The notes under the pieces were generated by a model. It searched no databases. It worked only from the letters and a program-made list of their open reading frames with translations, and was not told the DNA's origin. The position numbers and the translations under genes are program-made. A stretch of DNA of 64,000 nt, taken from Leptospirales bacterium. GTDB lineage: Bacteria > Spirochaetota > Leptospiria > Turneriellales > JAOUFE01. Numbering within the stretch: position 1 is the first letter of the stretch; each line of letters begins with the position of its first letter. This document shows positions 20,304 to 34,129 of the stretch, one piece after another. Where the stretch lies: NCBI GenBank assembly GCA_040326155.1, contig JBEQLE010000002.1, positions 32,001 to 96,000 of the forward strand, read 5' to 3'.

Positions 20304-21491
20304 ATGTCACATGTATTAATTTTAGGCGGAGACGGTTATTTAGGCTGGCCCACGGCAATGTACTTTTCGGAACGAGGTTATGAAGTTACTGTAGTGGATA
20401 ATTATCTGCGCCGTTTCGGAAGCCAGAGGCTTGACACGGGACTTTTATTCGATGTTCCAAACTTGATACAACGAGCGACGCTCTGGTATGAGAAAACCGG
20501 AAAAGAGATTAAAGTTGTCATTGGCGACCTGGCTGATGCAGAAATAACTCGATCACTGTTCGACGGGCGTATTAAATACCATTGGTCTCATAACAAAAAG
20601 TTTACAGGTATTCCTGATACAATTATCCATTATGCTGAACAACCTTCGGCTCCTTATTCGATGATCGATTATAAACATTCTAATTTTACCATTCAAAATA
20701 ATTTACTGGTTACGAACAACATTATGTATGCTGTACGTGATTTTGCTCCGAAATCTCATATTATTAAACTGGGAACAATGGGAGAGTACGGAACTCCGAA
20801 TATCGATATTGAAGAGGGCTGGATAGAGATTGAGCATAAAGGACGAAAAGGAAAGTTTTTATACCCTCGTCAGGCTGGTTCCATTTACCACACATCAAAG
20901 ATTATGGATACGGATTTATTGTGGTTTGGCGTACGCATGTGGGACCTGAAAGTTACCGACTTGATGCAGGGACCGGTGTATGGAATTGAGACGGAAGAAT
21001 CGATTATCGATAAACGACTCAGGACGCTTTTTAATTATGATGAAATTTACGGAACAATTGTAAATCGCTTTATTACCCAGGCGGTAGTCGGTTATCCTTT
21101 GACGGTTTATGGTAAAGGTGGACAGACTCGTGGTTATCTTCATATTGAAGATACGTTGCAGTGCGTTCATAAATCGGAACAGACCCCGGCGAAAGAAGGT
21201 GAGCTGCGAATTTTCAACCAGATTATGGAAATGTTTTCAGCAAATGAACTTGCTGAAAAAACTCAAAAAATCGGCAAGCAGCTGGGATATGATGTTAAAA
21301 TAGAATCTATAGAAAACCCGCGTAAAGAGCAGGAAGAACACTACTACAATCCAACCTACCAGGGGCTGCTTGACCTTGGAGTAAAACCGCATTATTTAAA
21401 AGACGATTTAATGATCGATATGTTCCGGGTTGTGGAAGAGTATAAAGAGAATATTAGAAAAGAAGTTATCTTTCGAGGAATTAAATGGTAA
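20304..21491 (+). CDS. sqdB: UDP-sulfoquinovose synthase (SqdB/SQD1/Agl3 family)
   Basis: GGDGYLGWPT, HYAEQPSAPYSM, KLGTMGEYGTPN, YHTSK, DLMQGPVYG and NPRKE...HYYNP. Confidence 0.9.
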   Translation: MSHVLILGGDGYLGWPTAMYFSERGYEVTVVDNYLRRFGSQRLDTGLLFDVPNLIQRATLWYEKTGKEIKVVIGDLADAEITRSLFDGRIKYHWSHNKKFTGIPDTIIHYAEQPSAPYSMIDYKHSNFTIQNNLLVTNNIMYAVRDFAPKSHIIKLGTMGEYGTPNIDIEEGWIEIEHKGRKGKFLYPRQAGSIYHTSKIMDTDLLWFGVRMWDLKVTDLMQGPVYGIETEESIIDKRLRTLFNYDEIYGTIVNRFITQAVVGYPLTVYGKGGQTRGYLHIEDTLQCVHKSEQTPAKEGELRIFNQIMEMFSANELAEKTQKIGKQLGYDVKIESIENPRKEQEEHYYNPTYQGLLDLGVKPHYLKDDLMIDMFRVVEEYKENIRKEVIFRGIKW

Positions 21492-24757: not shown

Positions 24758-25670
24758 AAAACAGGTTTTTATAACAGGCGATGTTCACGATTCGCAGTTG
24801 CGAGGCTATGACAGCAAATGGTTAAAACGTTATCACAAGATGGACGAAATCGACTGCGCCTTGAAATATGGAGAATTGGCAGAAAAATATAAAATTCCGG
24901 TTACGCTTTTTTTTACCGGCAGATGTTTATCAGAACAAAAACGGATGCAATCTTTGCAGTTAAATTCATTCGTTGAATTCGGAGCTCATACATACAACGC
25001 ACTCCAACCATCCTGGCTGCACCTGATATTCAAATTATTTCTAAAGTCTTATTACGGTCCGCTTAAATTCCAGCTTCGGGACATTCTAAAAACACAAAAA
25101 ATATTCCGGAATTTCAACGGCGATAATATTCAACTGTGGCGAACACACGCCTACCAGTCAAACAACAATACATTAGACATATTGCGCGATCAAAGTTTTA
25201 AGGTCATCTCGGATGACGTTCGCTTGGACGGATCTGAAATATCACAAGTTCGAAACGGGTTGTACTCTGTGCCGATTAACACTCCGCCCGATCATGAGAA
25301 TCTATACCATGGTTTTTTTAATGAGACAAGATTAAAAGAGAACAAAATGTTGATGCATAGCCTCGGGTCAATATTTCGTGTAAGTCCCACTGCGGCAAAT
25401 GGTATACGTTTCACAAAAGAGCTCATTAAAAAATTGCTCGGACGTCGTCCGAAAGTCGATTTGACCAAACCTGTCGCTTACAGTGTTACGGACTATTTTT
25501 CCCACTTGAAAAAAGAAACAGAAGAGGCCCTGGCGCGCGACGGGTATGCCATGATTTTACTGCATCCGGGTTGTATGGAAATCGCCGATAAAATGAACGG
25601 TTTAGAAGATTTTTTTCTATACCTGGGAAAATTCAATGTCTCTTTTTTAGGCGACGCTGAATTGCGTTGA
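24738..25670 (+). CDS. Polysaccharide deacetylase-like protein
   Basis: ITGDVHD, PVTLFFTG, EFGAHTY and LLHP. Confidence 0.75.
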   Translation: MATKKSKKQVFITGDVHDSQLRGYDSKWLKRYHKMDEIDCALKYGELAEKYKIPVTLFFTGRCLSEQKRMQSLQLNSFVEFGAHTYNALQPSWLHLIFKLFLKSYYGPLKFQLRDILKTQKIFRNFNGDNIQLWRTHAYQSNNNTLDILRDQSFKVISDDVRLDGSEISQVRNGLYSVPINTPPDHENLYHGFFNETRLKENKMLMHSLGSIFRVSPTAANGIRFTKELIKKLLGRRPKVDLTKPVAYSVTDYFSHLKKETEEALARDGYAMILLHPGCMEIADKMNGLEDFFLYLGKFNVSFLGDAELR

Positions 25671-26114
25671 AGTAATTTGCAATCCAATCTCCTTTGGCTT
25701 GATTCGTCTTAAAGCGAAATCAACTTTATGAATTATTTCCTGAATATTTAAACCGTTTCTAATTTGAACAATCGAATGAATACTGATCTCGATAGTTACG
25801 ACTAGACCGTGTATCCTGTAATGATTATTTGATTTAGTGCGCATGGTAACCCTTGCATCGCTGTTTCATGGGCAATGGATATTACCGGAAAAACCTGGCC
25901 GTAGAATATCTTTTTCCGGTTTACGAAAAATTGGTCTCTTCTCAGTGAATATGAAGTTTGGAACCAATGAATAAAATAGACTTAAAAAATAAATCGCTCC
26001 TGGTTGTTGTCAACCACCATTTGCTCTATAATGGGACTAGCTACTACTCTTCGAATTCACTGTTCTTTAAGTTTTTGAATCAGTTGTATCGATAGCCTGA
26101 ACCACGATCTTGTT

Positions 26115-26823
26115 TTATAAGTTCTGTTTCAGAAGTTTAAGAACATAAGGCATATAATAAGCGCGACCATTATCATTTAAATGAGCTTGGTCTGCAAAAT
26201 AAATATCATTTTTAATAAGCATGTTTTCGGGAATTCGTATATGAGCTAAATTCATATATTTCTCTTCCAGCTCTGCCATTTTTTTGTTAATAACAGGGTT
26301 ATACTGGGGTTGGGGTAAATCCAGAATGATCAGTTTAATTCCTTTTTGTTCACATAACAAGTACAACTCTTCGAGTAAATGGAAACTTATGTCCGTCCAA
26401 TTCTGGTCGGAAGTTATCGATTTTTTTTCTTTGTAGCTGATTTGACCAAGCTTGTTTTGTTAAATCATCCCACGTTTCCGTGCGAACTTTATTTCGATAT
26501 CTTTTCTTGTTTTGTGGCATTACCTCTGTGTTGTGCGGCAAGTTTTGAGACTTAGCATATGGAAAATTTCGTTTTATAAATTTAGTGGAACTTTTTAGAT
26601 AGTATATATACGGATTTATTAGCCGGACTATTTTGTAGGATAGTTTAATATCGTCTTTTTTCAATCCGTATAATTCCGTGAATCTATTTTGCCTCAAATT
26701 GGGTATATCTTTTGAACTTTTTTCCGGTGTTTGTTCTTTTTGTCGAGTGGTTGTTTTATAGAGGTAAAAAACAAAAGATGAAAATAATAGAAATATGAAA
26801 ACATGAATGACAGTAGATAACAT
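26115..26823 (-). pseudogene. Internally deleted, frameshifted paralog of the SGNH/DltD-like gene at 31349-32545
   Basis: Shares INPY, YRNKVR, LYLLCEQKG, IILDLPQ, YFAD..HLND.GRAYY.PY with 31349-32545. Split across two frames near 26400-26460. The GGSS block is missing. Confidence 0.8.
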
Positions 26824-26976
26824 AATAGTTATAGTTCACGCGATAGAATGATAAAACAACCTGTACTGTTAAGTGGCTCGTTTATGGAAGGGGGCGGGTA
26901 TTTTTCCTTCGTACTCTTGCCGCTCAAACTCCTGAACTATGTATTGACAACATGATCCCAAAAGGAATAAGTTCAT

Positions 26977-28377
26977 ATGAATACCGTTGTTAAAATTATA
27001 GGTCTAGTCGGTTCCATTCGTTCAAACCACAATCATTTGGATGAGCTTTCTCAGATCATCCATGTGTCTGCAGATCTTGATACGCTTTTGAAAAACATCA
27101 AGGCTTGCCCTCATGTGTTTTCAAATACCGATATTGCTGTAGCAGCAGCACTCATGGGGGCAAAAAGTAACGGCGCCGCCGTTGAAATTATTTCTCTCGT
27201 TGATTTGTTCCGCCACCGGAGCGAAGATTTATACAAAGAACTGGATAGCTTTGCGACGATCGATGATCTTGATGAAATTGACACGTTATCCATTAATGAT
27301 AAAGCCCTTGTTTCGATTATGCAATCCCTGACAGAGTGTCATGGTATCATCCTCGGGTCTCCCGTTTATTTCGGAGATCGTTCTTCGGTCGCGAATAAAA
27401 TTCTTCAACTGACCGGTAAATCTGATATTTTGAAAGATAAAGCTTTTGGGTCGGTTGCCACCGGTGCGAAGCGAAATGGGGGTCAGGAGACGACAATTAT
27501 TTACACGCTATACGAAGCCATCCTTCAAGGAGCAGTTGCCGTGGGCAATGGGCCAAAAACAGCTCAGTACGGTGGGACCGTATATGCCGGCGATGTCGGT
27601 AAGGCCGTTGAAGACGTCTTCGGTATGGATACCTCTTTTGGAACGGGTCGTCAGGTCGCGCAGCTGGCAAAAATTATTCAAGCCGGTACGATCAGTCCGG
27701 CAAAGCGAAAACCCAAAACCCTGTTTTTAGTAACTATGGACAATGCCGAAAAAAAATATCAGAAAACTCTGGAAGATTATATTAAAAAGCAAAAACATGA
27801 GTTTGACCATGAAGTTGTTAACCTGACTACGGAAAATATTTATCGGTGTATTGCCTGCAGTGCCTGTCCCTCGCCTGCTTTAACCGAAAAGTATAAAGAT
27901 CAGGAAAATCCATATACTTGTGTCGTCCAAACTTCGAAAGATAATATGAAGTATCTGCGGGAAAAAATGGTAGATGTCGACGTTATCGTTCTAGTTGGAG
28001 TAAATACCAATGAACCGCTTACATATCGCTACCAGGCTTTTATGGAGAGGACCAGGTTTATACGACGTAACGATTTCGAGCTTACGAATAAAATTATTCT
28101 GAGTTTAAATATTGAGGAAGTCGGGGCGACTAAGAACAATATTTTTGACGTTAAGGCAATTACGTCTTTTATTCGTCATAATACCGTCATTGTGAAACCG
28201 TTACAGTTGATTTTTCACAAGGGTAAAATTCTGGTAGAACCTGATTTCGCAGAATATTTCCCCATTTTTGATAAAATTGTAAATGGACGTTTTGAAATCG
28301 ATCCTTTTGAAGTGAGTTATAAAGCGACAGGGTATGATAACAAAACACTGGACCATACTGCGGCAATCCGAAGGTAA
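26977..28377 (+). CDS. Tandem-domain flavodoxin-like / iron-sulfur flavoprotein (Isf-like)
   Basis: Domain 1 has GSIRS, GSPVYFG and RNGGQETT. Domain 2 has CIACSAC...C. Confidence 0.75.
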   Translation: MNTVVKIIGLVGSIRSNHNHLDELSQIIHVSADLDTLLKNIKACPHVFSNTDIAVAAALMGAKSNGAAVEIISLVDLFRHRSEDLYKELDSFATIDDLDEIDTLSINDKALVSIMQSLTECHGIILGSPVYFGDRSSVANKILQLTGKSDILKDKAFGSVATGAKRNGGQETTIIYTLYEAILQGAVAVGNGPKTAQYGGTVYAGDVGKAVEDVFGMDTSFGTGRQVAQLAKIIQAGTISPAKRKPKTLFLVTMDNAEKKYQKTLEDYIKKQKHEFDHEVVNLTTENIYRCIACSACPSPALTEKYKDQENPYTCVVQTSKDNMKYLREKMVDVDVIVLVGVNTNEPLTYRYQAFMERTRFIRRNDFELTNKIILSLNIEEVGATKNNIFDVKAITSFIRHNTVIVKPLQLIFHKGKILVEPDFAEYFPIFDKIVNGRFEIDPFEVSYKATGYDNKTLDHTAAIRR

Positions 28378-28381
28378 TTGT

Positions 28382-28504
28382 TTAGAAACCCATATAACGA
28401 AACGGGCGAAAACCGGCATTTTTCATGAGTACAACGATGAGAACTACCCAGTATAAGATAGAAAAAAGAAATCCGTAAAACAATGACCTGAATAATAATT
28501 TCAT
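28382..28504 (-). CDS. DltX-like 40-aa membrane peptide (not in the ORF track)
   Basis: Manual translation gives MKLLFRSLFYGFLFSILYWVVLIVVLMKNAGFRPFRYMGF*. It has a GGAG RBS right after the MBOAT stop, one TM helix and a C-terminal FxYxxF motif. Confidence 0.85.
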   Translation of the reverse strand: MKLLFRSLFYGFLFSILYWVVLIVVLMKNAGFRPFRYMGF

Positions 28505-28513
28505 AGTTTCTCC

Positions 28514-29728
28514 TTAATTAAACAGAATTGCAAACGCGTAAGAATACAACTTTACTACAACCTGAAAATCGTGTACGGCTACCATCACAAACACAAATGA
28601 AACAAAATATATTGTAATTATATTACCGGTAATGCGCAGGAACAATGCGCCTGCCTTGTTGTTTTTCATCCGTTTAAACCATCTCATTTCCCGAATTTTA
28701 CCGTAAAAGTTGATTCCAGTTGCATGTAATATTGCCCAGGTTATCCAGTTTAATGTTAATGCGTGCCATATTCCGATGGTCAACATGCTCAGGTAGGTCG
28801 ATATCCAGGCTTTTTTAGTTTTAATTAAGGCTGGAAAAAAAACATAGTCTCGTGTCCAGTTTGATAAAGACATGTGCCACCTTTGCCAGAACATGGAAAG
28901 GTTGCTTGCCAACAGAGGTTTGTTAAAATTTTCCTGATGGGTAAAACCCAGTAATTTAGAAAAAGATTTACTGATTTCCGTATACAACATTAAATCGAAG
29001 TAGGCATGGATGAAAGCGCTAAAACCAAAAAGTGAGAGTTTCAGAAAAAACAAATGGTCTTTCCCACTATCCATATTTTGCATTAGTAAAGGTAACGTTT
29101 TCTCGTATGTGTATTGGTATAAATAATTATCGATAAGCAAAAATTTCACACTTATGGCGGTAAATAGTAAAAGGTAAATATTACGACGGGGCTTTCCGGA
29201 AAACTGTGTTTCGAGATATTTAAAGTCACGAAATCTTTGAATAGGGCCGGCCAGTATTATTGGGAAGAAAAAGACGTATGAATAATAATCTATCGGGTTT
29301 ATATTTTCGAACTCCTTCGGACGATTCGCATAATCAATCATCATCGATAATAACCTGAAATAGTAATAAGAGACGCCTAAAGGTATATATGGATTTTCAA
29401 TGTTCAGAAAATACTGGTAATCTTTTATCAGTAACAAGAGCCCGATGGAGCATAAGACAAACAGAGATAACTTTTTTTTAATCTGTATTTTTTTGTATAT
29501 AAGAATATAAACAATGGTTGATAATAACAGCAGTTGAAAAAATGACCCTACGTCGAGCCAGATTAGAAGTCCACCGGAGATGATAATGATAAGGGACTTT
29601 TTTTTATGGATATTTTCATTTTTAAAAGACCATTCAAGAAAAATGATAATAGATATTACAATAATGATAAAAAAGATTATAAGGTTATCGCCCAGAAAAT
29701 CTGCAATTTCTAAAATAGTTTCCAGCAT
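28514..29728 (-). CDS. MBOAT O-acyltransferase (DltB/AlgI-like)
   Basis: PLGVSYY, AGPIQR, ENFNKP, FWQRWHMSLS and catalytic GIWH. Confidence 0.93.
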   Translation of the reverse strand: MLETILEIADFLGDNLIIFFIIIVISIIIFLEWSFKNENIHKKKSLIIIISGGLLIWLDVGSFFQLLLLSTIVYILIYKKIQIKKKLSLFVLCSIGLLLLIKDYQYFLNIENPYIPLGVSYYYFRLLSMMIDYANRPKEFENINPIDYYSYVFFFPIILAGPIQRFRDFKYLETQFSGKPRRNIYLLLFTAISVKFLLIDNYLYQYTYEKTLPLLMQNMDSGKDHLFFLKLSLFGFSAFIHAYFDLMLYTEISKSFSKLLGFTHQENFNKPLLASNLSMFWQRWHMSLSNWTRDYVFFPALIKTKKAWISTYLSMLTIGIWHALTLNWITWAILHATGINFYGKIREMRWFKRMKNNKAGALFLRITGNIITIYFVSFVFVMVAVHDFQVVVKLYSYAFAILFN

Positions 29729-29734
29729 AATTTT

Positions 29735-31075
29735 CTATAACGGTTTTAAGTCTTTTAAAAGCCGACCAATTTCCTTTCTATCAATTTTCATCGTCTGGGT
29801 AAAAGGAAAATTTTCCATGGTGTAATATTTATGCGGCAACTCGTTATTTTCAAGTTTACCCTTAAGTTTTTTAATAAGTTCTGAGCGTCCTATTCCGCAA
29901 TCTCCTTCAAACACAAGGCAGATTAAATTTCCCAAGGTGGGGTGTTCCTGCGGGACCACAGCGATGCCGGTCTCGGGAAAAATTTCCGTTACCTTGCCCT
30001 CGATGTGTTTCAAAGAGACTTTATTGCCCCCGACTTTTATTTCATCGTCGCTTCGACCTGCCAGGACCATCACCCCATGGTCTGTTTTAACAATGTCGCC
30101 AGTTGCATGCCACTGTATGGATTTGTCAAAAATGCCGTTGCGAATATATCCCTGGAACAGGAAATCTGACTTTACGTACAACTGCCCTTCTCTGGTCTCG
30201 TACTCCATTCCCTCTATGCAATTGCCGATTCCGTCAATAAGTTCGGGAGCCATCGACGAGTTTACCGGTTGAATAAAAAAGCGACCACCGAGTTCGGCCA
30301 GCCCGTAGACTTTGAAAAAAACAGCTTCGGGAAATTTTGACAGAATACTTGTGATGGAATTTTTATAAATAAAATCTCCGGATGTAAAAAAGAATGCCGG
30401 TTTATAATTCGGTTTGATTTTCGCCAGCGACATTAGTATGTGCATGGGAGAACCCAAAATGGAACAATTTTCATTTTTTTCCAGTATTTCGGGAAGAGAA
30501 TCAATATGATCGAAATCGGAAAAAATTAAAAAACTTTCGGTAATATAATGAACAAGAAAATGACTCAATGCACTCATCAGGTAAGGTTTAAGCATGGTAA
30601 TTCCGGTGAAACCCGAAAGGCCCATCGCGCTTGCCGTTTCTCTGGCATTGTCAAAAAAGTGTTTTTTTACATGGACAATCCCTTTGGGGGTTCCCGTGCT
30701 TCCGGATGAAAAGATGATGGTATCAAAATCTATTTTTTCCATTGCCTCGACTTCCGTGAAATCGGGGTTTTCAGTGATTTGAATTTTTTCATCATTGTAT
30801 TGTATAACGTGAGTGTAGTGTGGAAATATTTTTTTTCCCTGAAAGTGATCTCTTGTCGGGAAAATGACTTTGGCATCGGCTTTCCACGCGGCAAATAATA
30901 TTGTATATAACTCTATTGGGTTTTCAGTGGCGATTAAATAAAAACGTTCGGGAGCCGACGGTATGGCTCCGGTCAATAGGTTGACACGTTCGGAAAACTC
31001 GGTGTCAGTCATCGATGTATCACGATACTGAATCAGTTTCCGGTTTTCGTGTTTGCTTAACAGTTGATCAAGCAT
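29735..31075 (-). CDS. Adenylate-forming enzyme (ANL family; DltA position)
   Basis: FSSGSTGTPKG, YGLAE, TGD, GRSDDEIKVGG and TMKIDR. Confidence 0.9.
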   Translation of the reverse strand: MLDQLLSKHENRKLIQYRDTSMTDTEFSERVNLLTGAIPSAPERFYLIATENPIELYTILFAAWKADAKVIFPTRDHFQGKKIFPHYTHVIQYNDEKIQITENPDFTEVEAMEKIDFDTIIFSSGSTGTPKGIVHVKKHFFDNARETASAMGLSGFTGITMLKPYLMSALSHFLVHYITESFLIFSDFDHIDSLPEILEKNENCSILGSPMHILMSLAKIKPNYKPAFFFTSGDFIYKNSITSILSKFPEAVFFKVYGLAELGGRFFIQPVNSSMAPELIDGIGNCIEGMEYETREGQLYVKSDFLFQGYIRNGIFDKSIQWHATGDIVKTDHGVMVLAGRSDDEIKVGGNKVSLKHIEGKVTEIFPETGIAVVPQEHPTLGNLICLVFEGDCGIGRSELIKKLKGKLENNELPHKYYTMENFPFTQTMKIDRKEIGRLLKDLKPL

Positions 31076-31328
31076 TGTTATTATTCAACTTGGTTTCAAG
31101 ATAATCGACGATACGATTCACCGTTCCGAGTGTATCAAGTGTAAGGTCGAAAGGGTCGATCGATATGGAAAACTCAGTTTCCATGAACATGATAACCTGC
31201 AGAACATTGATTGAATCGAGAAAGTCATTTTTAAATATTTCTTCATCAACACTTGTCAGTGTTTTTCCAGCGAGAGTTTCCACCTCTCCTTTTATTTTGT
31301 TTATTAGTTTCGCTCTTTCTATGGCCAT
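31068..31328 (-). CDS. Acyl carrier protein (DltC-like)
   Basis: 86-aa acidic protein with an FLDSI phosphopantetheine site and an E.EF.I.I pattern. Confidence 0.88.
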   Translation of the reverse strand: MAIERAKLINKIKGEVETLAGKTLTSVDEEIFKNDFLDSINVLQVIMFMETEFSISIDPFDLTLDTLGTVNRIVDYLETKLNNNNA

Positions 31329-31348
31329 TTTATACTCTCTGTTTTATT

Positions 31349-32545
31349 TTAATTCCCAAGCAGGGGTTTTAGTGACTTTACTATATAAGGAAAATAATAG
31401 GCACGACCTTGATCATTCAAATGGTTTGTATCCGCAAAATAATTTTGATTTCCTTTCATCATGTACGGTGGTATTTCGATATGGACTATGTTATTATATT
31501 TATTTTCCAGATTTTTCATCTTTGCCATAATCAAACTACTTTCATTGCGTTGGGGCAGATCGAGAATAATGAATTGATACCCTTTTTGCTCGCATAACAA
31601 ATAGAGTTGTTCAAGAAAATAAAAGTTGATTTCTATAGACCGGCGCACTATCTCTTTTTTCTCCTCGCTATTCCTCCCTTTCTTGTGTTTTTTGCGCTTT
31701 AAAGATGTTGGTCGAACTTTATTGCGATATTCCTTCATGTTTTGTATAATAGGACGCTCATCATGGAATAAATTATTCAGTCCTGTTCGATTCAATTTCC
31801 ATTTAACAAATATGATTGCATCCTTAAGTGCATATACGTATGGATTGATTTTAGCGGCAAATCGATAAGAAAACTTTGGCTTGTTCCCATGGTTCCCGTA
31901 TTTGTTTTTATAATCTTCCATTACTTCAAGTACTTTATTCGATTCTAAAAAATAAGGATAATCACTGCCGTTCAAATAATTTACTTTGGATATTCTGCTT
32001 TCTTCGAGAGCCGAGAATTTTCCAGCGCGAAATACATATACGATGACACTACCTGGCGTTTCAATTTGATCAACTATGCGTATCGTACCTAACAATTGTT
32101 GAGAATGGCTGCCCAGGTTTATGGTTTTAATACCGAGTTGCTTGCTGACAATCTTGTCATTTTGGAAATATTCTCTGGCAGAAGATCCGCCTAAAGTATA
32201 GATTGCCCGTTTATTAATTCTATTTTGTTCTAGGAGTTTCTTCATTTGATAATTGAAAAACCTCCTCCCCTCGCTAGGGGTGAGCCTAGACTCAGGGTTC
32301 TCGATGAAAGCTGCAAACATAGCGGAATTATAATTATGGAATAGACCCATTTCAGTCAGGAAAAAGACAAGAGAAATTGTACCGGTTAAAACTGTGGAAA
32401 TAATTCTTCTTTTTGAATTTCTTTCTTTTTCGCGATTATTAACGTCTATTTCCGATGCAACATTTTCTTTACCAAACCGATAATACAGGTAGACAACGAA
32501 AAAGATGAAAGTTGTAAAAAGTAAAGTTTGAAATATGAAATTCAT
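31349..32545 (-). CDS. Membrane-anchored SGNH-like acyltransferase (DltD/AlgJ-like)
   Basis: Two N-terminal TM helices, LGGSS (catalytic Ser), INLG and DTNH (DxxH). Confidence 0.75.
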   Translation of the reverse strand: MNFIFQTLLFTTFIFFVVYLYYRFGKENVASEIDVNNREKERNSKRRIISTVLTGTISLVFFLTEMGLFHNYNSAMFAAFIENPESRLTPSEGRRFFNYQMKKLLEQNRINKRAIYTLGGSSAREYFQNDKIVSKQLGIKTINLGSHSQQLLGTIRIVDQIETPGSVIVYVFRAGKFSALEESRISKVNYLNGSDYPYFLESNKVLEVMEDYKNKYGNHGNKPKFSYRFAAKINPYVYALKDAIIFVKWKLNRTGLNNLFHDERPIIQNMKEYRNKVRPTSLKRKKHKKGRNSEEKKEIVRRSIEINFYFLEQLYLLCEQKGYQFIILDLPQRNESSLIMAKMKNLENKYNNIVHIEIPPYMMKGNQNYFADTNHLNDQGRAYYFPYIVKSLKPLLGN

Positions 32546-32701
32546 TTTATATATAAAGGATAATGAAACACACTGAAAACCACAATTTGTGGGCTAGTGA
32601 TTACCACGTCAAGTCATTAATACTGTGGCCATTTTCAGATCTTTTTCTAAATAAAAACTTGTTATTCCAGAGCGGTTTTCCACTTTACCCGTATCCAAAT
32701 T

Positions 32702-33061
32702 ATGAAAATAAAAAATAGTATATATTACCTGCTTGCTTTGTTTTTTGCAGTTACCCCGGCCTGGGCTACGGAAGAGGCGCAGTTAGCTCCCGTGTCTGAT
32801 ATTCTTATATTAATGGTATTGATTGTATTTTCAATTCCGTTGACTGTCTACACTTTCGGACATTACATTCTGAAAACGCAAGGCACCTTAATCTATACCC
32901 TTTCGGGAGCTATAATAGGGTTTGTCGTTGGCGCAATGGTCGACGTAATAGCAGCGAAAGAGTATGTGCAAACCATCAATATTTACATTATCGGGTTAGG
33001 GGCTTTTGCATTGGTGGGTAGCATTACCGCCAACGTAATGTCTCACCGCAGTCACTCCTGA
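32702..33061 (+). CDS. Small membrane protein
   Basis: Signal peptide (AWA) followed by three TM helices. Confidence 0.6.
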   Translation: MKIKNSIYYLLALFFAVTPAWATEEAQLAPVSDILILMVLIVFSIPLTVYTFGHYILKTQGTLIYTLSGAIIGFVVGAMVDVIAAKEYVQTINIYIIGLGAFALVGSITANVMSHRSHS

Positions 33062-33064
33062 AAT

Positions 33065-33093
33065 TAATTATCTATTATTATAATAGATAATTA
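33065..33093. promoter_or_regulatory. Perfect 14-1-14 AT-rich palindrome (candidate operator)
   Basis: TAATTATCTATTAT-T-ATAATAGATAATTA, 55 bp upstream of the ATG at 33149. Confidence 0.55.
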
Positions 33094-33148
33094 CAAAACG
33101 GCATTGTAATAATCGCAGCGTTGTGCACCTTAACAAGTCAAAAAACGT

Positions 33149-34129
33149 ATGTCAAGAAACGATTCTGAATCTGAAAATTCTGAAGAAGACAACGGAGTTG
33201 AAGATAATTTTGTTTTGGTAAAACAAAGCGTGTGTCCAGCGTGTGCAGCGCCAAAAATTACCGCCTCAACTGCCTTTTATATATATTGCGATTATTGCGC
33301 CACTTTTATGGACACCGATTACAGGATGTTAATACCTGAAAATGTTGTTGTAGCTGAACCCGACCCGAACTACGATTCATTTATGCAGACGATGAGTCAA
33401 AGAATGATCGATACCAGAGAGGCTCAAGACAAAGCAGGTTATAAGCAAATCTGGCTTGAATTCTATAATCTGCAGATAGAAAAATATCCCCAGTATTATC
33501 CCCCCCGAATTGGCGATGAAAAATATAGAAAAAAGTTTATAGATTACAATGTTTCCTGCCTGGTCGAACTGGAATTTAATGAACACTTGAAACGTCTGTC
33601 CGATAAGGTCAGCGAGGTATTTGCAGAAGTTAAATGGGAGCAGGTAAAGGTAAACAACGAAGATAGAACGATAATTTCATTTGAAGATTTAATGAATACG
33701 TACAAGGTACAAACTGAATTAACCCGGGCAACGATAAAGCATTATGACAGTATAGGACTTAAGTATCCCGATAAAATGGTGACCGGCGAGCTAGCCGAAC
33801 GAGTGTTTATGTCGCGATTTATGGAAGGTTATATGAAACATCTTCTTCCGGATGACCAGGAAGAACTATTAAAGCAAACCGGTCTTCTTGGAAAATATCA
33901 TAAAGTGTTAAAGCCCCACCTTACTCTACGCCACTGTGGTCAATGTGGTTCGTCTCTTTCTGTTGTTGATGGAGCAAAAAATGTTATCTGTGAACCCTGC
34001 GGCCATGTCATTGACGTGAGTGTCGCAGAATTTTCATGCCCCGGATGCAGTGCCCCGGTTTCATTGCCCATTGAACAAACTCAGATTACCTGCCCCAGTT
34101 GTAGTACCGTTATTCACTCTTACGATTAA
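33149..34129 (+). CDS. Multi-zinc-ribbon hypothetical protein
   Basis: Six CxxC motifs: CPAC and CDYC, then CGQC, CEPC, CPGC and CPSC, flanking a helical core. Confidence 0.75.
   Translation: MSRNDSESENSEEDNGVEDNFVLVKQSVCPACAAPKITASTAFYIYCDYCATFMDTDYRMLIPENVVVAEPDPNYDSFMQTMSQRMIDTREAQDKAGYKQIWLEFYNLQIEKYPQYYPPRIGDEKYRKKFIDYNVSCLVELEFNEHLKRLSDKVSEVFAEVKWEQVKVNNEDRTIISFEDLMNTYKVQTELTRATIKHYDSIGLKYPDKMVTGELAERVFMSRFMEGYMKHLLPDDQEELLKQTGLLGKYHKVLKPHLTLRHCGQCGSSLSVVDGAKNVICEPCGHVIDVSVAEFSCPGCSAPVSLPIEQTQITCPSCSTVIHSYD

Follow-up and report, generated by a model that had tools for sequence, protein, structure and literature searches.

A Conserved, Predicted Membrane Peptide of 40 Residues with a Likely Role as Tyrosine Acyl Shuttle in a Carrier-Fed MBOAT Cassette of a Leptospirales Bacterium

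The Cassette and Its Small Open Reading Frame

The window considered here is the whole stretch of 64,000 nucleotides analyzed from contig JBEQLE010000002.1 of a Leptospirales bacterium (assembly GCA_040326155.1), and the features of interest within it are collected in Table 1. Along the minus strand, genes for an SGNH-fold protein, an acyl carrier protein, an AMP-forming ligase, an MBOAT, and a 40-residue peptide follow each other in this order with intergenic gaps of at most 20 bases, and a gene for a tandem flavodoxin-like protein converges on the last of them. The two reading frames of the partial second SGNH copy are 35% and 55% identical to residues 216–299 and 294–393 of the SGNH protein, and no match to this copy was found in the close relative L032. 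The region 25600–33200 holds 36 promoter-like sites (25.3 ± 5.6 in shuffles) and 10 terminator-like sites (5.7 ± 2.3 in shuffles).

Table 1. Positions of the Cassette Genes and Associated Features in the Window
Feature	Position	Strand	Basis
Single-helix membrane microprotein, 40 aa, C-terminal FRYMGF, predicted acyl shuttle	28382..28504	-	ORF translation, hydropathy, homologues
Tyr37 codon of the 40-aa peptide	28396-28394	-	
AAGGAG, match to a ribosome-binding site, overlapping the MBOAT stop, with ATG 5 bases on	28510..28515	-	
Short DltB-like MBOAT, 404 aa, His322 invariant, without fused FxYxxF tail	28514..29728	-	Above Pfam MBOAT cut-off
AMP-forming ligase, 446 aa, predicted carrier loader, A4 stretch without Asp	29735..31075	-	
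Acyl carrier protein with LDSI motif, 86 aa, overlaps the start of the ligase gene	31068..31328	-	Pfam PP-binding 20.9 bits, cut-off 20.8
SGNH-fold transferase, membrane-anchored, DltD-like, 398 aa; Ser121, Asp372, His375	31349..32545	-	Alignment, Foldseek, VIA
Tandem flavodoxin-like protein, 466 aa, CxxCxxC...C in second half, convergent on the peptide; candidate acyl-cargo maker	26977..28377	+	
Partial second SGNH copy, two reading frames, probably a relic	26115..26823	-	

An earlier note on this DNA had described an unannotated, DltX-like open reading frame of 40 codons ending in PFRYMGF, and this description is borne out by the minus-strand reading of 28382–28504; the plus strand of the same stretch is interrupted by stops. 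As that note had also observed, a GGAG ribosome-binding site lies next to the MBOAT stop, with TAA at 28516–28514, GGAG at 28513–28510, and the ATG at 28504 following five bases later. The single transmembrane helix claimed for the peptide corresponds to its one hydrophobic stretch, for which the best 19-residue Kyte–Doolittle window covers residues 8–26 (mean 2.55), and the spacing from helix to tyrosine is 11 residues. That the peptide had gone unannotated is supported by the absence of its exact sequence from approximately 15 billion called proteins, among which the neighboring MBOAT (P0002) is present. Two Lys/Arg residues precede the helix and three follow it; under the positive-inside rule, the corresponding counts across 24 peptides are divided, with 10 favoring an outward C-terminus, 3 the reverse, and 11 ties.

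The partner proteins resemble Dlt components without scoring as such. The MBOAT reaches 124.9 bits against the DltB model TIGR04091 (cut-off 375), its two best solved structures are both DltB, and its W321/H322 pair is invariant in 44 of 44 aligned rows, with His322 aligned to the WH of DltB. For the carrier protein, the top NCBIfam model is DltC, at 29.6 bits against a cut-off of 68. In the SGNH protein, Ser121, Asp372, and His375 are invariant in all 10 rows of the family alignment, of which one member passes the Pfam DltD model, whereas the protein gave no useful match at the sequence level, and a search of the SGNH profile against solved structures by sequence found none. Structural comparison used a model of middling quality (pLDDT 71), for which the nine best Foldseek rows are DltD, at a TM score of only ~0.35; in VIA, DltD (6pfx) gives the longest alignment listed (Z 12.1 over 262 residues), although the top row (Z 13.5) is not a DltD. 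The SGNH fold of the model, the conserved triad, and the presence of DltD among the best structural matches thus agree with a DltD-like partner for the peptide, where the earlier note had named an SGNH protein, and the N-terminal helices of the model predict that this transferase is extracytoplasmic.

Conservation of the Peptide and Placement of the Motif

Comparison with the closest relative, L032, in which MBOAT, peptide, and convergent flavodoxin are arranged as here, reveals the signature of a coding sequence in its bias toward silent sites. Of the 41 codons (stop included), 21 differ between the two peptide genes, 12 of them silently, and the base changes fall 8, 2, and 18 times on the first, second, and third codon positions, respectively. 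The final ten residues are identical despite three silent changes.

The genome as a whole contains 18,125 ORFs of 25–70 aa that start with ATG, and FxYxxF is the C-terminus of 10. A GGAG/GAGG site together with a hydrophobic stretch accompanies the motif in two of the 10, where 0.019 would be expected under independence of the three features, with thresholds that were chosen after the peptide had been seen. These two ORFs are the peptide itself and a paralogue, and each sits after an MBOAT gene.

A metagenome scan with the MBOAT alignment gave 16 loci, 10 of them close (46–87% identity) and 6 distant. The conserved small ORF that was looked for near homologous MBOATs is indeed found, as a peptide ending in FRY[MI]GF, in 6 of the 10 close loci (L025, L026, L027, L029, L030, and L032), and a Rhodobacterales locus and a second cassette in the genome studied here each encode one that ends in F[RK]YxGF. 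The remaining four close loci (L024, L028, L031, and L033) are whole short contigs that start inside the cassette and are therefore uninformative on the presence of the peptide. We note that the six peptide loci are not independent, since L026 and L030 are 84–95% identical and several of the loci are close kin, and that L032, L026, and L030 have a weak ribosome-binding site. The peptide gene lies behind the MBOAT, behind the flavodoxin, or ahead of the carrier protein gene, so that it moves as an independent unit.

A profile built from nine peptides retrieved 24 proteins from 1.84 billion representatives, 23 of which are 40–64 aa long; in these 23 the F and Y of the motif are kept throughout and the final F in 22, an invariance that is in part circular, given that the same motif went into the profile and that query members account for two of the 24 matches. 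The twenty-fourth, P0086, is a 130-aa record in which the peptide runs into a carrier protein, and it was left out of the motif counts; a real fusion would place motif and carrier on one side of the membrane, so that read-through or a sequence error is the probable explanation. Among the nine aligned peptides, the free six-residue tail is the best-conserved part and its Tyr is invariant in all nine, and the peptides also have a common helix pattern (e.g., SLLYW). On this sequence evidence, the stretch 28382–28504 on the minus strand is a real, conserved gene for a 40-residue membrane peptide.

The adjacent MBOAT (404 aa) ends in YSYAFAILFN and, as the earlier note had stated, lacks a terminal motif of its own. 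This holds for its subfamily: a C-terminus of the form [FY]xYxxF is found in none of 47 close MBOATs (a set that includes the one from the window and some fragments) versus 19 of 23 distant ones, and median lengths are 395 aa for the close and 472 aa for the distant proteins, making the tail-less subfamily ~75 residues shorter. In the six distant metagenomic loci, the motif is fused to the MBOAT. A quick tree of 42 rows (15 close MBOATs, 23 distant, and four added) puts 18 of 21 tail-less rows on one branch (SH-aLRT 96), on which the Rhodobacterales locus, with carrier, ligase, and a peptide ending in FKYQGF, is also found. Tailed MBOATs on the one hand and tail-less MBOATs with peptides on the other form the pattern one would expect of a motif that can be provided in either of two ways, by fusion or in trans. 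An hhalign comparison of the peptide profile with one tailed MBOAT (P0051) yielded no alignment (probability 0.2), and thus does not establish that peptide and fused tail share an origin.

Genomic Setting and Candidate Cargo

A second, divergent cassette lies on the same contig, ~38 kb away and before the window (G000:C94:19917-25848; L040:2918-8849). It comprises a carrier, an SGNH protein that passes the Pfam DltD model (25 vs 22.7 bits), a tail-less MBOAT of 392 aa, a peptide of 40 aa that has a GAGG site and ends in FRYEGF, a VOC protein, a ligase, and a tandem flavodoxin, and the two cassettes are 22–58% identical, gene by gene. An AT3-SGNH acyltransferase gene flanks it before and a gene for a PhyH-type dioxygenase after. 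The genome’s two remaining MBOAT matches both have a fused C-terminal motif and are without such a peptide. Sequence and gene context support the pairing of MBOAT and peptide made in the earlier note; that note had overlooked the carrier and ligase, with which the five-gene dlt-type cassette is complete, the second cassette, and the signs that the cargo is other than D-alanine.

Elsewhere in the genome (G000:C20:4487-7552, L051), a 56-aa DUF5989 membrane peptide ending in FVYSLF is encoded directly 3′ of a carbamoyltransferase gene, with an AlgX-like SGNH gene in the vicinity, and may shuttle carbamoyl groups on its tyrosine without an MBOAT.

The host genome contains LpxC and three FlaA matches above cut-off, as befits a diderm spirochaete with LPS. 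The cassette adjoins a long cluster of genes for glycosyltransferases, sulfotransferases, and nucleotide-sugar enzymes, which includes, at 20304–21491 and among several sulfotransferase genes, a UDP-sulfoquinovose-synthase-like gene (416 bits against a cut-off of 575). A similar-looking epimerase gene lies in the viral-collection locus L048, and two very long ORFs occupy 50260–56244 (1994 aa) and 58122–62765 (1547 aa) of the window. No close MBOAT was found in 60 related genomes (listed identities 25–36%), a scan of genome contigs with the single MBOAT gave only three loci, all distant, and at E 1e-40 the tandem flavodoxin had no match across 400 further genomes from the phylum, nor was one found in plasmids. 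The lack of a close MBOAT or flavodoxin among relatives suggests that the cassette moves with surface-glycan clusters. Separately, the genomes of one related family (G034–G060) have 9–13 MBOAT matches each, in ORFs that are mostly 460–540 aa long.

The nature of the acyl group is approached through the ligase and its neighbors. Against the two DltA models, the ligase scores 60.1 and 55.2 bits (cut-offs 476 and 559.85), and its best-scoring model is MenE, ahead of DltA; its best single PDB match is nevertheless a DltA (7vhv, E 5e-16). In amino-acid-activating domains, the Asp of an FD pair binds the alpha-amino group, and at this position all seven close ligases have KPYL[MV]SA, with no Asp.

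Seven of the 10 close loci contain the tandem flavodoxin (six by alignment, and L033 recognized by eye), and it also lies beside both cassettes of this genome. Among MBOAT records on contigs of at least 8 kb, 12 of 19 close ones versus none of 23 distant ones share a contig size with a listed flavodoxin match, an indirect measure that relies on exact contig size and on the best 120 of 821 matches. The same flavodoxin family occurs in eight viral-collection loci (L043–L050) in which there is no MBOAT, peptide, SGNH, or ligase match. Leaving out L047, a near copy of L046, the flavodoxin there is at most two genes from an ATP-grasp ligase in 6 of 7 loci and near a PIG-L deacetylase in 4 of 7. These viral-collection flavodoxins sit in glycan-modification clusters, two of which have an enolase-superfamily gene just upstream. 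The partners of the flavodoxin are hence acid-activating ligases of two unrelated types, which would be expected of an enzyme that makes the acid.

In L030, genes for ComB, ComA, and a VOC protein (L030:7180-9087) directly follow the MBOAT, at the place that the flavodoxin takes in relatives, even though L030 and L026, which has the flavodoxin, are 84–95% identical over five genes (ligases 89%). ComB also directly follows the MBOAT at the contig end of L031 (L031:3238-3727), a more distant lineage with 59% MBOAT identity to L030. This replacement makes sulfolactate a candidate cargo in L030 and L031, although it could merely reflect turnover of neighboring genes. ComA has no match in the host genome (94.7% complete), which counts against sulfolactate by that route here, and “sulfolactyl” is not mentioned in the literature searched. 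The lack of the Asp in the ligase and the linkage to flavodoxin, replaced in L030 by sulfolactate-synthesis genes, indicate that the cargo is probably not D-alanine and is probably another small acid. We consider it a speculative and rather unlikely extension of this that a Dlt-type machine has been rewired to place a sulfonated, negatively charged acid (3-sulfolactate or a similar product of the flavodoxin) on a Gram-negative surface glycan by way of a free Tyr shuttle peptide; if true, the sulfonated cargo would add negative charge, whereas D-alanylation removes it.

Proposed Relay, Alternatives, and Known Systems

In excerpts from PMC12148441 and PMC13653941, DltB is described as passing D-Ala from DltC to the Tyr of the DltX FXYXXF motif and from there to the Ser of DltD, while PatA uses the same relay with the motif fused, the Tyr being the covalent carrier in both PatA and DltX. 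The role of this motif as acyl shuttle, to which the earlier note had pointed, agrees with what PMC12148441 states in these excerpts. By analogy with DltB–DltX–DltD and PatA–PatB, from which the reaction steps are drawn throughout, as are the membrane orientation assumed for the peptide and the acceptor, the peptide is likely the tyrosine acyl shuttle of a five-gene, carrier-fed cassette predicted to acylate a surface glycan with a small and probably non-amino acid. The acid would be adenylated by the ligase and loaded onto the phosphopantetheine of the carrier. His322 of the MBOAT would then transfer the acyl group to Tyr37 of the peptide at the outer face of the inner membrane, upon which the FRYMGF tail would swing over to the SGNH protein and acylate Ser121. 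Finally, the SGNH protein would esterify a periplasmic glycan, which, judging from the gene neighborhood, is most likely the product of the adjoining polysaccharide cluster. This scheme is built on what was observed of the genes and the way they are linked, on residues conserved in their products, on an MBOAT without a tail, and on the SGNH fold of the model.

Three other readings of the locus have to be weighed against a shuttle of this kind. The most conventional of these is that the peptide is a divergent but ordinary DltX, in a cassette that decorates LPS with D-alanine or some other amino acid; the dlt genes of Dickeya and Pectobacterium have been proposed to do so. Each of the five gene types that make up dltXABCD is represented, and the DltA match in the PDB and the DltC match of the carrier point in the same direction. 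Yet the models for DltA, DltB, and DltC are all far below cut-off, MenE outranks DltA, the Asp is missing from every close ligase, and neither the linked flavodoxin nor the ComA/ComB genes have a role in D-alanylation, and we regard this reading as improbable. It is also conceivable that the peptide is a purely structural subunit, which stands in for the final two helices that the short MBOAT lacks while the acyl group goes directly from MBOAT to SGNH protein; the ~75-residue deficit of the MBOAT subfamily and the shared helix pattern of the peptides are both in its favor. However, it is the free tail rather than the helix that is best conserved, its Tyr never varies among the aligned peptides, and this Tyr is a covalent carrier in the two systems described in PMC12148441 and PMC13653941; we judge a structural role alone to be quite improbable.

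The third reading, a chance open frame between two convergent genes, could appeal to the ten genomic ORFs that share the FxYxxF ending, most of them without other signs of a gene, and to the lack of a match between the peptide and any family model. It is largely refuted by the silent-site bias, the paralogue, the homologues at differing positions in the cassette, and the 24 database relatives, and its probability is minimal. The peptide as a tyrosine shuttle thus remains our preferred interpretation, and it draws on sequence and gene context; the peptide fails the DltX family model. For PF12459, there is no match to the peptide (E up to 0.1) or to seven relatives (E up to 0.05), and a genome-wide search returned two matches below cut-off, neither on the cassette contig.

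In its general features the peptide resembles a DltX-type shuttle, being a small single-helix protein with a terminal FxYxxF and an invariant Tyr, next to an MBOAT that has the catalytic His but no tail, and linked to an SGNH protein with a Ser-Asp-His triad. As in DltX, a chain of some 40–50 residues with one helix is encoded on its own, next to the genes for a carrier, a ligase, an SGNH transferase, and an MBOAT that lacks the tail; unlike DltX, with its consensus FIYNEF, it ends in FRYMGF. The spacing from helix to tyrosine in Bacillus thuringiensis DltX is, by our own count on the sequence given in PMC5541007, 12 residues, against 11 here. From Gram-positive dltXABCD, the cassette differs in its diderm host, in the missing A4 Asp of its ligase, in its linkage to flavodoxin or to ComA/ComB, and in its variable gene order. 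We therefore describe the peptide as one that likely works like DltX, by analogy, but that is outside the DltX family PF12459. The mechanism is borrowed from a known system, and what is new is this variant of it.

The PatA–PatB and AlgI-type pairs, as far as they are covered in excerpts of PMC12148441, have the same type of hexapeptide and Gram-negative hosts, and the predicted relay from acyl-Tyr to acyl-Ser is likewise shared; in these pairs, however, the motif is carried on two extra MBOAT helices, which the MBOAT of the window lacks, and the donor is acyl-CoA, rather than a separate peptide gene with carrier and ligase. The dlt genes of Dickeya and Pectobacterium, according to work cited in PMC5541007, also form a dlt-type operon in a Gram-negative host and are thought to modify LPS. 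They are described there as true dlt genes that give peptide resistance, and it is by this description that they are set apart from the present cassette, with its scores far below the Dlt models. The passages of PMC5541007 on distribution report dltX in 809 species, 805 of which are Firmicutes, and mention one Gram-negative DltX of the same topology, so that a diderm DltX has precedent. Our literature searches on DltX gave no paper on this peptide family among the matches listed, although Schultz et al. (2023) may list such cassettes.

The passage of PMC12148441 (2025) that bears on this point describes MBOAT acylation pathways other than Dlt as being without a DltX-like microprotein and a carrier protein. 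The presence of both in this MBOAT cassette of a diderm host, twice on one contig, contrasts with this statement. For annotation, a rule follows by which an MBOAT without a terminal hexapeptide predicts an overlooked small ORF nearby. For the biology of the envelope, the cassette points to decoration with acids besides alanine or acetate, by named enzymes that can be assayed.
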